From Shigella phage Sf19: a DNA stretch of 64,000 nt. Below, one piece after another: positions 46,433 through 50,332 of the stretch. The notes beneath the pieces were generated by a model. The model was not told where the DNA came from. It ran no database searches and was given only the letters and a program-made list of their open reading frames with translations. Each line of letters opens with the position of its first letter. Positions within the stretch are counted from its first letter, which is position 1. The DNA is taken from the sequence record MF327005; one strand, written 5' to 3'. The position numbers and the translations under genes are program-made.

Positions 46433-46813
46433 TTATAAACCCATGCAGTGACGATTTTCAATAAAGTATTGAACACCTTTGAAAGACTCACGCATAAAAT
46501 TATCTTTCACATCTTCTACAGTCTCAATACCTTTGCTATCAAGAATGTCAACGTTCTGAGTAACCATCTCATCTGCTAATCTGTCATAGTAATCTCCCAT
46601 AAAATGGTAGTTGTAGTCAACCATCTTATCAGTCATTTCTTGAACAGTCTGAGCAGACAACGGTTTAGTCAACTCTCCAGCATTTGAAGCGATTTTCTGT
46701 ACAATCTTACAAGATTCTAAAGCGACACCATTAAAGTTTGCTTCAGGCATCTTCATAGCTGCTGCACTAAAACTCATACCAATAGCAATGACACCAACAA
46801 GTAACTTTTTCAT
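46433..46813 (-). CDS. secreted protein with N-terminal signal peptide
   Basis: 126 aa; MKKLLVGVIAIGMSFSAAA signal-like N-terminus; AGGAGG RBS. Confidence 0.55.
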   Translation of the reverse strand: MKKLLVGVIAIGMSFSAAAMKMPEANFNGVALESCKIVQKIASNAGELTKPLSAQTVQEMTDKMVDYNYHFMGDYYDRLADEMVTQNVDILDSKGIETVEDVKDNFMRESFKGVQYFIENRHCMGL

Positions 46814-46910
46814 AACTACCTCCTATATAAAATTTTGTATACATTTGAGTATAAAAATAAGCTATAACACCTGACTTGTCAACAGATTTTATAGCTTATT
46901 TGGCAGATTT

Positions 46911-47143
46911 TTTATAAGGCTACTGCCATCCTTCCGCACCCGACCTGACCTCGCCCAACCTTACCTGACTGAACCACACCCGACCAAACATCACTTAAAA
47001 ACCCTTTTCAAAGACTCTTAAGTGATGTAATCGAATTTTTATGTAGCTCCGATTAACTACCCATACCTAACCCCACCTTGCCACACCGAACCAGACCAAA
47101 CCCAGCCTCATTAAAAGACCCTTTTAAAGACCTTTTAAAAAGG
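46911..47143. repeat. mosaic repeat element copy 1 (C/A-rich tracts + conserved hairpin modules)
   Basis: Shares modules with 48286-48560 (ggctact(g/a)ccatcc; catcacttaaaa..ttaagtgatg; cctcattaaaagaccc..ttttaaaaagg; TTTT(T/A)ATGTAGCT loop hairpin) in different order. Confidence 0.7.
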
Positions 47144-47165
47144 AGCCTCCGAAGAGGCTACCTAG
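47144..47165 (-). terminator. hairpin terminator for minus-strand gene 47171-47611
   Basis: agcctc-cgaa-gaggct with A-run on plus strand. Confidence 0.55.
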
Positions 47166-47170
47166 TCAAC

Positions 47171-47611
47171 TTAGAAAGGTTTTCTACGTTGCTTGTTAAT
47201 GTTAGCTTTCATGGCAGCTAAATGGTTTTGCTGTTCAATCAGTCGTGAACGTTCTTGATGACTAAGTGCCATAGTGTTCACATTCTCAATCGCTTGAGTG
47301 GCTTGTTTTAAAGCACGACCAATCTTACTAGACATTTTACGTTTTGCAATAGTTGCTTGATGTTTAGGTTCCACCACACGATAACCAACACCCATTGAAG
47401 TGACCAGATAAATCTTCTCTTCTTTAAGAAGCTTCTCAATAAACTTCTCAAGTCGATTTAGGCGTGTAAGTGCGTAAGCTTTCATTTCATCTTCGTACTT
47501 AACAATGTCACCTTGATAAGTCGGCTTCACAATACCTAAGAAGGTGTCCATCTCAGAGTGTGATACAGTATCACCGTAACTGAACTTTGCTGCTAATGCT
47601 TTTGTATTCAT
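47171..47611 (-). CDS. hypothetical protein (cassette gene 2)
   Basis: 146 aa ORF flanked by mosaic repeats. Confidence 0.5.
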   Translation of the reverse strand: MNTKALAAKFSYGDTVSHSEMDTFLGIVKPTYQGDIVKYEDEMKAYALTRLNRLEKFIEKLLKEEKIYLVTSMGVGYRVVEPKHQATIAKRKMSSKIGRALKQATQAIENVNTMALSHQERSRLIEQQNHLAAMKANINKQRRKPF

Positions 47612-47613
47612 AA

Positions 47614-48216
47614 TTAAACATTACCTTCTGAAATAACTTCTACAGAAAAACGACCAAAGCGTGGACGCCAATCACCTACACCACAAAGGTTGCCAGCATT
47701 TTCCAGAACCATCAAGAGTTCTTCTTTGGTAATTTGTTCTTCATCGAACATCAAACCAAACTCTACAGACCAGTCACGGAAGATTGGACGGTAGCTCATA
47801 ACTCGTGCTGTGCCAATCTTAACAGACTTCGCATAGATAAAGTCTTGGTTCTTAGCTAGTTCTTGTGGGTTTGCTGGACAGTTCTTAATAGTCATTGGGA
47901 AGACTACATCTGTCAGCATAATGGCTCGGTCAATTACCTTACCAAGTTTGTTGAGTTTTGCACCAGACTTGATACAAGCCTCAATCATCTCACCGTTCAT
48001 AACAAAACCTAGTTGCTCGTCGTAGTAACAAGAGGTTACCAGTTGACTCTCTGCTAAGAGAGCGTAGTCTTCGTCAGTCTTTTTACGTTTACTAGACAGA
48101 GACTTGTGATACTTTGTCAGAGGATTTAATGGGTCTGACAGAGTATCAGCATGGCTCAGGAAAGGACGAGTGCCAGTGATTTTGATATTTAACAGTTTCA
48201 TAGCATTTAGCTCCAC
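47614..48216 (-). CDS. hypothetical protein (cassette gene 1)
   Basis: 200 aa ORF; GTGGAG RBS-like. Confidence 0.5.
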
Positions 48217-48285
48217 ACTTTAGTTGATTGTTAAGTTGTTTGTAAAGAACCCTCAACAGAAGACTCTTTAGAAACTTGGTAGATT

Positions 48286-48560
48286 TTTAACGTGGCTACT
48301 ACCATCCACCCTTACCTCACTTTACCTAACCTGACCTTACCAGACCCAACCGGACACTACCCTACCTAGCGAAACCTCATTAAAAGACCCTCTTTAAAGA
48401 CCTTTTAAAAAGGTGAGTCTCATTTTAATGTAGCTGAGACTAACTACCCTCACCAAACCGGACCAGACCCAACCCAGCCATACCAGACCATACCACACCC
48501 AACCGAACCGAACCTTACCGAGCATCACTTAAAACCCTTTTCAAAGACTCTTAAGTGATG
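48286..48560. repeat. mosaic repeat element copy 2
   Basis: Same modules as copy 1, shuffled; lies in 5' leader of minus-strand transcript. Confidence 0.7.
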
Positions 48561-48592
48561 CTGGTGAGTACCCGTTGGTTTATGCTGCTCAG

Positions 48593-48620
48593 TATACTCA
48601 CCAAATTTTCTATGTCAACA
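48593..48620 (-). promoter_or_regulatory. sigma70-like promoter on minus strand (TTGACA-16-TATACT)
   Basis: Reverse complement reads gTTGACAtagaaaatttggtgagTATACTgagc. Confidence 0.55.
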
Positions 48621-48781
48621 ACTTTATATTAAAAATTCTCTGACTACTGCATTTACTACAAATGATAACAGAGTAAGGGCTAAGGCTGATTTGTATGTTA
48701 TGCTTAACAGTTTACTTATGAAGTAAGATAATGATAAAACAACAAAAACAAACAGGATAATTGCGCTAAACATGCTAACCT

Positions 48782-49882
48782 CTATTCATAATCTCGTATA
48801 ACAAGCCCAACAGGGAACTGTAAAGAACCCTTACGAGTCATCTTCTGGAACTGAACCGTTAAAGGCTTCCCGATAAACTCTTCAGGATGTTCAGCAAGAT
48901 ACTTTTTCTTCTCGTGTGTAGTTTTCCATGAAACATCTACAAAGACGTTAGGAAGAGTCTCTACAACGAACTTACCATGACCACGTTTATCAGTCTTTAC
49001 ACCAGTTACTATGAACTCCTGCGTGTGCATCTTCTTGTGTTTAATCAAGAAGTACGAACGGTGACCACACTCATAGAACGAATCTGGTGAGATTGACCGA
49101 TACATTGCCCCTTCAAACTTGAGTTTAACCCAATTGTCATGAGCATTATCAAATTCTTCCCAAGAGTTAACACGGATTGTCTGAACAGGTACAACCCTGC
49201 AAGCATCACCGAGTTCAACGATTGGTGAATTATCAATAACTTCACGACGCTCAGGCCAAGATTTAGTCTTGTCACAGATATCATACCAGTAGAATTTAAG
49301 AAGGTGACGGTCTGGATTGTCAGCATTCTTAATCATAGACACAATATCTTCCAAGTCCCAACCATGAGCATAAATCTCACCGTCGAAATCTTCAACATCT
49401 TTATGAAGCTTCAGCATAAGAAGAACATCAGGAATCAACTCTACAGGAATGTTGTATACCGTGTTCTCACGAGAATATGCCGTAAAACTTTCTGAGTCAG
49501 CATCTCTTGAAATCCTGCAACGAACCCCGTCAAGTTTAGGTTGAGCATCGGCAGGGAATACCAGATACTTCTTGTGACTTATCTTGGAAGCATCCTGAGC
49601 AAGCTGTACACCAACCTTTTCAACATTCTCTGCTTCAGATTTTGTGTAAGCATACCCTTTACGGTCAACCTGCTTCTTGTACTTAGCAGCAACTTCAAAG
49701 AGAGCTTGCTGTTCAGCATTACGCTCATTCTTTTTACCGATGTTCTTAGGTTCTGCTGTGTACTCTTCGAACATCATCTTGCCATTTTCTTTACCATAAG
49801 TCGTGACTACTTTATCACCTACAGCAACACATGACCAGACGTTGAAAGAACCATCTTTATTTTGTTTGTACAGAATTGTCAT
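48782..49882 (-). CDS. ATP-dependent DNA ligase
   Basis: 366 aa; adenylation motif PKLDGVRC (KxDG) and downstream ligase motifs. Confidence 0.85.
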   Translation of the reverse strand: MTILYKQNKDGSFNVWSCVAVGDKVVTTYGKENGKMMFEEYTAEPKNIGKKNERNAEQQALFEVAAKYKKQVDRKGYAYTKSEAENVEKVGVQLAQDASKISHKKYLVFPADAQPKLDGVRCRISRDADSESFTAYSRENTVYNIPVELIPDVLLMLKLHKDVEDFDGEIYAHGWDLEDIVSMIKNADNPDRHLLKFYWYDICDKTKSWPERREVIDNSPIVELGDACRVVPVQTIRVNSWEEFDNAHDNWVKLKFEGAMYRSISPDSFYECGHRSYFLIKHKKMHTQEFIVTGVKTDKRGHGKFVVETLPNVFVDVSWKTTHEKKKYLAEHPEEFIGKPLTVQFQKMTRKGSLQFPVGLVIRDYE

Positions 49883-50136
49883 TTACGTTTCCCACCAATT
49901 TCTACATCAATAACTTGTGTGTCTCCACAAACATCAAACTTATGAATGATATTCTCTACAGTGTAAGTCCAACCATCAATCCTTACCCATTCACCTTCTC
50001 GTGGCACTATTGGGTTACGTTGTGCTACAGTTGTAGTTGAGTGAACAACGTCATACTTATAGATAAAATTTACCAGAACCTGCATATCAATATTCTCCAT
50101 CAAAAACTGTGGTGTGTGACTGACTATTCTTCCCAT
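49879..50136 (-). CDS. hypothetical small protein (true start may be internal Met)
   Basis: 85 aa ORF overlapping 50087-50332 by 50 nt. Confidence 0.35.
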   Translation of the reverse strand: MGRIVSHTPQFLMENIDMQVLVNFIYKYDVVHSTTTVAQRNPIVPREGEWVRIDGWTYTVENIIHKFDVCGDTQVIDVEIGGKRK

Positions 50137-50332
50137 ACTTGTAAGAAGTTGTAGTCTGAGAATTTGGGCAGCGAACTACAATAACATCCCTGCTAATGGC
50201 ATCACCATTAAGCTTATAAATCTTGCAGTCTTGCATTTCTGGAGGAAGTCTGTAAGAGGCATCCTTATTCTCATAAGAAGGGTTGCACCCCACCAGTAAG
50301 ACTACTAAAGCTGGTATCAATAATTTTAACAT
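50087..50332 (-). CDS. small lipoprotein
   Basis: 81 aa; signal peptide with lipobox LLVGC. Confidence 0.5.
   Translation of the reverse strand: MLKLLIPALVVLLVGCNPSYENKDASYRLPPEMQDCKIYKLNGDAISRDVIVVRCPNSQTTTSYKYGKNSQSHTTVFDGEY

Follow-up and report, generated by a model that had tools for sequence, protein, structure and literature searches.

Conserved envelope-targeting signals in two small proteins from the replication block of Shigella phage Sf19

Shigella phage Sf19 (sequence record MF327005) carries two small minus-strand genes, here called gene A and gene B, whose products are predicted to leave the cytoplasm of the infected cell, A as a secreted protein and B as a lipoprotein. Both lie in the 64,000-nucleotide stretch analysed in this work (hereafter, the window), and an initial annotation had put them forward as early-region candidates for superinfection exclusion. 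Comparison with related phage sequences confirms that the envelope-targeting signals of both are real, conserved and clearly not chance. A periplasmic host-binding role for A and B is plausible, and the superinfection-exclusion reading is weakly supported. B is the more interesting lead, as it belongs to a very large uncharacterised family of phage lipoproteins. The features that carry these statements are as follows.

50087–50332, minus strand: gene B, lipoprotein precursor of 81 aa, phrog_902 (ORF and profile match)
50285–50332, minus strand: lipoprotein signal peptide of gene B, MLKLLIPALVVLLVG, with lipid-attachment Cys16, codons 1–16 (sequence and lipobox screen)
46433–46813, minus strand: gene A, secreted protein precursor of 126 aa, phrog_4332 (ORF and profile match)
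46757–46813, minus strand: predicted Sec signal peptide of gene A, MKKLLVGVIAIGMSFSAAA, codons 1–19 (n/h/c heuristic and ortholog conservation)

Results

Gene B encodes a predicted outer-membrane lipoprotein

The B precursor has a single Lys in its n-region, and its lipobox L-V-G-C ends at Cys16, which is followed by NPSY. When every open reading frame (ORF) in the six frames of the window was passed through a strict lipobox screen, gene B was the sole ORF to pass, which bears out the LLVGC lipobox read in the initial annotation. The GenBank record of the Sf17 ortholog, gp69, already carries a note to the lipoprotein profile PROSITE PS51257. In E. coli, the residue after the lipidated Cys governs lipoprotein sorting (the +2 rule). 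This residue is Asn in B, so sorting to the outer membrane is expected under the rule. We infer that B is lipidated and sorted accordingly, and its +2 Asn would probably leave it anchored in the inner leaflet of the outer membrane.

The mature part of B (66 aa) contains the invariant residues Cys36 and Cys55 and the motif VVRCPNSQTTTSY. Its AlphaFold2 (AF2) model is poor (predicted local distance difference test (pLDDT) score of 58), with predicted β-hairpin strands at residues 37–42 and 50–54; the invariance of the two cysteines suggests a Cys36–Cys55 disulfide across this predicted hairpin. Scans of B against Pfam, NCBIfam and PADLOC gave sub-threshold noise only, and the lipoprotein models match the signal peptide alone. 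A candidate match to the InsA zinc-ribbon (E = 0.11) was ruled out because B has two non-lipid cysteines only.

Gene B belongs to a large and widespread phage family

Residues 1–76 of B match phrog_902 (E = 5.1e-17), whose function is unannotated. A profile search recovered 631 family representatives at 50% identity, and a second search more than 1000 clusters at 90% identity. Members are mostly 75–90 aa long and follow the consensus C...Y.LP.EL.DCK.Y.L...VVRCPNS.T.T.Y..GK. Only the lipid Cys and two further Cys are invariant among 88 diverse members, for which mean column identity is 20%, while a lipobox-like motif is found in 152 of 160 members, with near-variants in the remaining 8. A precomputed table of the protein collection assigns PF16225.11 (DUF4884) to every B homolog, whereas direct hmmscan of gene B and 87 relatives against Pfam-A gave no PF16225 match, a mismatch that may come from a version or threshold discrepancy. 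'DUF4884 domain-containing protein' is also the GenBank name of a coliphage protein (PMC12210894); neither phrog_902 nor DUF4884 carries a functional assignment.

By tblastn, 569 phage records contain a member of the family, in every case labelled a hypothetical protein. Besides Ounavirinae, the carriers include about 290 phages of Vibrio, phages of Acinetobacter, and jumbo phages infecting Erwinia, Salmonella and E. coli; the Vibrio phages inspected are T5-like Demerecviridae of ~114 kb. In eight other phages or contigs whose gene order was inspected, B homologs sit in runs of small same-strand genes near nucleic-acid enzymes (DNA/RNA ligase, polynucleotide kinase, a Thg1-family tRNA-His guanylyltransferase-like protein, RNase T, a sigma factor and a phosphatase). 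No B homolog adjoins a tail or receptor-binding gene in any of these contexts or in the window. A conserved neighbour was considered in the form of a ~120-aa downstream gene present in three distant phages, and was rejected because these genes are unrelated by BLASTP. The distribution of the family across unrelated tails and hosts (Enterobacteria, Vibrio, Acinetobacter, Erwinia) points to a target that these hosts share, and away from a phage-specific receptor. Such a shared Gram-negative target would be equally compatible with generic exclusion or envelope protection, with host takeover and with anti-defence.

Among bacterial genomes, one B copy was found, in Hylemonella gracilis (185,579 species-representative genomes; one exact pattern, a 32-sequence alignment and 20 pattern matches). 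This copy, from strain ATCC 19624 (NZ_AEGR01000062.1, 5980–6258 of the piece examined), has as neighbours a candidate regulator ORF, a 488-aa ORF whose N-terminal segment is hydrophobic, and three clustered ORFs (314, 82 and 639 aa); the locus may be an island or a phage remnant. A further small lipoprotein (MIKKLLTVVFVFCTMFLTAC...) is encoded by gp172 of Escherichia phage Sharanji (4572–4847 of the piece examined), two genes downstream of a B-family member. Its cysteine pattern (...DC... / ...YECPG...) resembles that of the B family, of which it may be a distant paralog.

Gene A encodes a predicted secreted helical bundle

Gene A matches phrog_4332 over its full length (4.8e-65). We assessed its N-terminus with a home-made von Heijne-style rule, an n/h/c heuristic. 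The segment MKKLLVGVIAIGMSFSAAA|MKMPE combines an MKK n-region with a 16-residue uncharged h/c stretch and A-A-A at positions −3 to −1, and predicts cleavage at ...SAAA|MKMPE, between residues 19 and 20. Orthologs at 32–60% identity (wV8 gp93, Felix O1 ORF87 and that of Suspvirus EP1) keep the MKK n-region and hydrophobic core, together with a small-x-small site (VNA|T, VKA|M, AYA|D). The cleavable signal peptide that had been ascribed to A therefore holds, in its AXA site as well as in its conserved form, and A would be exported and cleaved through this canonical Sec signal.

The mature part of A (~107 aa) is acidic, with a net charge of −7, and contains no further hydrophobic segment, its highest 19-residue Kyte–Doolittle mean being 0.48. 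Cys35 and Cys123 are invariant in the ortholog alignment and probably form a disulfide. The AF2 model (pLDDT 87.6) is a three-helix bundle with helices at residues 30–44, 54–85 and 93–120, while residues 1–16 fall below a pLDDT of 50. Neither the fold search nor the scans of Pfam, NCBIfam and PADLOC gave an informative match for A; the latter returned sub-threshold noise only, such as PRA-PH (E = 0.015; 16.2 bits against a cut-off of 21.3) and DUF6438. Sequence and profile searches of the PDB with A and B found nothing except signal-peptide matches. Invariant cysteine pairs, as present in both A and B, are expected of proteins in an oxidising compartment.

The phrog_4332 family is found in 258 phage records, all from Ounavirinae and every one annotated as hypothetical. 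In a comparison with wV8, only one of 97 shared ORFs diverges more than A (32% identity against a median of 76%); even the long tail fibre, at 50%, diverges less.

Transcription and timing in the replication block

Upstream of gene A, two further minus-strand features mark the start of a transcription unit.

46854–46882, minus strand: sigma-70-like promoter ahead of gene A, TTGACA-17-TATTTT, with TATACT just downstream
47144–47159, minus strand: terminator-like hairpin AGCCTCTTCGGAGGCT followed by a T run, ending the upstream unit

The TTGACA and TATACT elements do not vary across KPS64, Moogle, wV8 and EP1, the last of these being more distant, and because the hairpin (47159–47144) precedes the promoter, gene A heads its own transcription unit. 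The 120 bp upstream of gene A are nearly identical between the window and wV8. Over window positions 46811–46930, promoter and 5′ untranslated region are nearly identical to wV8 (4884–5003 of the piece examined) and are followed by a coding sequence at 32% (protein), an abrupt mosaic boundary. High divergence of A despite a near-identical promoter region fits an interaction arms race. Shine–Dalgarno-like sequences precede gene A (AGGAGG) and gene B (GAGAGG).

Both ORFs are present on the minus strand at the coordinates of the initial annotation, inside a block of minus-strand genes extending from DNA polymerase (51076–53775) through DNA ligase (48782–49882) to DHFR and thymidylate synthase, with gene B between the polymerase and ligase genes. 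Tail-fibre and baseplate genes occupy 35935–42165 on the plus strand, the tail-fibre genes lying ~8 kb from gene B. In Felix O1, RT-PCR (reverse-transcription polymerase chain reaction) places the expression maximum of ORF87, the A ortholog, and of its neighbours ORF88, 89, 90, 93 and 96 at 25 min after infection, a class labelled 'middle'; ORF91, the B ortholog, is not in the expression table (PMC3185647, Table 3). The description of the locus, a transcription block from polymerase to thymidylate synthase, as an early region thus holds only roughly. Gp87 and Gp91 of Felix O1 are both absent from the identified virion proteins (PMC3185647).

Since A and B lie in different transcription units and differ greatly in phyletic range, we see no functional link between them and treat them as two separate leads.

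Genome setting and neighbouring features

Positions 46000–51100 of the window share 95–99% identity with the Shigella phages KPS64, Silverhawkium, Sf17 and Sf18, and about 89% with Citrobacter phage Moogle. All of these are Ounavirinae of the genus Mooglevirus, and the window represents a Felix O1-like (Mooglevirus) genome.

A 49-aa ORF (48624–48773, minus strand) directly follows the ligase gene. Its product, with two hydrophobic stretches (MFSAIILFVFVVLSLSYFISK...ALALTLLSFVVNAVV) and a match to phrog_22006 (E = 4e-7), is kept in KPS64 and Sf17 (100%), Moogle (80%) and wV8 (44%), unannotated in all four records. This ORF is a possible third envelope-protein candidate within 46433–50332, one that is missing from the initial annotation.

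The gene pair at 47171–48216 has 99% protein identity to wV8, while its flanking genes have 32–86%. The intergenic gaps on either side of it (46814–47170 and 48217–48623) both contain degenerate repeat arrays with 10-nt spacing (ACCnnACCnn on the plus strand; G/T-rich on the coding strand) and have 68-nt, 30-nt and 21-nt repeats in common, and wV8 has annotated 'DR_4' repeats at the two corresponding places. The pair looks like an exchanged cassette bounded by repeats; alternatively, the repeats could be a protein-binding array. Just 60 bp (51016–51075) separate the DNA polymerase gene from the neighbouring small gene. KPS64, EP1 and Felix O1 have an HNH endonuclease gene at this position, which indicates that Sf19 is without the homing-endonuclease insertion.

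Discussion

The explanation that we favour, tentatively and with less than even confidence, is that A and B bind host envelope components from the periplasmic side and so bring about exclusion or envelope protection. Both would be non-structural proteins exported from the cytoplasm of the infected cell during the replication phase and acting in the periplasm. A would be a soluble, acidic, disulfide-clamped three-helix bundle, specific to Ounavirinae and evolving very fast, while B would be a beta-rich lipoprotein of 66 residues, anchored in the outer membrane and stabilised by its disulfide. By binding its host component, each would alter the infected cell's envelope, and that of its debris, and thereby make any later attack by phages unproductive, following the logic of Llp, Rtp45 and Spackle. 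For B, the component bound would be an envelope protein that these Gram-negative hosts have in common, and not a lineage-specific receptor. Both the host-protein binding and any exclusion phenotype are hypothetical.

Small phage periplasmic proteins and lipoproteins offer precedents for such exclusion, in Llp acting on FhuA (PMC9586334), Rtp45 on LptDE (PMC12685063) and Spackle on gp5 (PMC7677548). Several observations nevertheless weigh against an exclusion role for A and B. Sequence, profile and fold searches found no homology or fold match of either protein to any characterised exclusion protein, and the fold search with the poor B model was uninformative. Gene B does not adjoin a receptor-binding gene, and its immediate neighbours are unrelated between phages, so a partner cannot be read from gene order. 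Ounavirinae are reported to target lipopolysaccharide (LPS), without a protein receptor (PMC8594841). A Pfam scan of ten proteins (nine tail or baseplate proteins and the putative holin) detected no muralytic or lysozyme domain, and the literature searched contains no phenotype data or functional work on either family.

Among the closest precedents for B in outward form is T5 Llp (PDB 8A60 chain B), also a small lipobox precursor (78 aa against 81 aa for B) with two further Cys, and also made while a virulent phage infects its host. Llp is located in the periplasm, attached to the outer membrane (PMC9586334), as is predicted for B. That B is a classical blocker of the phage's own outer-membrane protein receptor, of the Llp, Cor or Rtp45 type, is largely refuted and highly improbable. 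The two further cysteines are Cys26 and Cys73 in the Llp precursor and Cys36 and Cys55 in B. An apparent hhalign match to Llp (probability 82.7% at full length) is a signal-peptide artefact, falling to 0.6% when mature profiles only are aligned, and in the PDB profile search with the B family, Llp (8A60_B) aligned over residues 1–18 only and Rtp45 gave no match. Position and receptor differ as well. The exclusion lipoproteins T5 Llp, Rtp45 and those of the Cor type come from siphophages with outer-membrane protein receptors, and their genes are described as adjoining the receptor-binding gene (PMC9586334, PMC12685063). In T5, llp divergently adjoins the receptor-binding gene oad, whereas gene B lies between polymerase and ligase genes, and T5 uses FhuA, whereas LPS is reported for Ounavirinae (PMC8594841); the B family is moreover common to phages with different receptors. 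The Rtp45 and Cor-type proteins of T1-like siphophages also resemble B in being ~6 kDa periplasmic lipoproteins that bind an outer-membrane machine from inside (PMC12685063). Their genes, however, are described as being directly downstream of the gpJ/receptor-binding protein locus (PMC9586334), and B matches no such PDB chain and, among PHROGs, only phrog_902. These differences disfavour the receptor-blocking form of exclusion contained in the initial annotation, while exclusion at another step is possible. Plasmid entry-exclusion lipoproteins (TrbK, EexN) are likewise small and exclude incoming DNA at the envelope, but their NCBIfam similarity to B is confined to the signal peptide (residues 1–23) at E values of 0.03–0.1, far below cut-offs.

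A comparable role for A as an inhibitor of the tail-associated peptidoglycan hydrolase of incoming phages, modelled on T4 Spackle (gp61.3), is very unlikely. Spackle, which is made early, has a cleaved signal, a compact alpha-helical bundle, a disulfide and a periplasmic location (PMC7677548), and A shares this design in its cleavable signal, small helical bundle, conserved Cys pair and acidic surface, with its disulfide predicted from the two invariant cysteines. Spackle has 75 mature residues against ~107 in A, and A has no sequence or fold similarity to it. Among the ten scanned proteins, Pfam found TMP_3, Dit_like, Pam3_gp18, a Gp138_N-type spike, Baseplate_J and Gp10_C. It detected no lysozyme or lytic domain in the tape measure, in the baseplate proteins or in the central spike, a protein of 213 aa. 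As no tail lysozyme was detected by Pfam, which may miss cryptic domains, a Spackle-like role would leave A without a target.

Envelope location would also suit a part in lysis, either with A as a periplasmic antiholin-like factor or with B modulating a spanin or holin, a reading that we rate as quite unlikely. Ounavirinae do have rIIA and rIIB, and, as in T4, their genes for holin, endolysin and spanin are dispersed. T4 RI, the model for such a factor, uses a signal-anchor-release domain. The canonical cleavable AXA signal of A differs from this, and RI is not among the fold matches listed for A. The putative holin (42446–42820) lies outside the 30 ORFs most divergent from wV8, in which A ranks second, and the two thus do not co-vary; A and B are far from the lysis genes and are expressed with replication genes (PMC3185647). 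As a small predicted outer-membrane lipoprotein, B further resembles the o-spanins of the Rz1 family. That it serves as the Rz1 equivalent is refuted for practical purposes: its neighbours (68 aa and 83–88 aa) have no N-terminal transmembrane domain, and no i-spanin-like type II membrane protein adjoins or overlaps it. Moogle, KPS64, Sf18 and Silverhawkium have a separate overlapping i-/o-spanin pair annotated near rIIB; this pair is conserved across 279 records, and in this lineage it lies outside the window.

The most serious competitor, which we consider possible though doubtful, is that A, B or both neutralise a periplasmic or outer-membrane function of the host and thereby allow the infected cell to remain productive. 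Such host takeover or anti-defence might act, for example, on a host protease or nuclease, on an envelope-stress sensor, on vesiculation or on a defence linked to the envelope. The occurrence of the B family over unrelated tails and hosts is more in keeping with a generic host target than with a receptor, extreme divergence of A fits antagonism with variable host factors, and the single bacterial copy of B lies in a putative chromosomal island of Hylemonella. The Pfam, NCBIfam and PADLOC scans found no similarity to known inhibitor or anti-defence proteins, and no candidate target emerged. This reading is purely inferential.

Should A and B prove to be dispensable accessory genes, the present results would amount to routine annotation. 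Few cases of exclusion or envelope remodelling by a virulent phage are understood, namely T4 Imm and Sp, T5 Llp, and Rtp45. Were the B family to act at the envelope, it would by its size and spread be among the most widespread phage envelope effectors, and the first such effector untied to a receptor-binding gene or protein receptor. It would then provide a small probe for a conserved outer-membrane target, and would bear on the design of phage cocktails, Felix O1-like phages being used in biocontrol. A bolder and unlikely reading is that phrog_902/DUF4884 proteins are pan-phage, periplasm-facing outer-membrane effectors that dock on a conserved machine for outer-membrane biogenesis or a trans-envelope machine, such as LptDE, BAM, Lol or Tol-Pal, with A a separate, lineage-specific arms-race factor. 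Were this true, large virulent phages of many lineages would have a receptor-independent means of sealing or re-programming the envelope of the infected cell, and for the LPS-binding Ounavirinae this could mean interference with LPS export or display.

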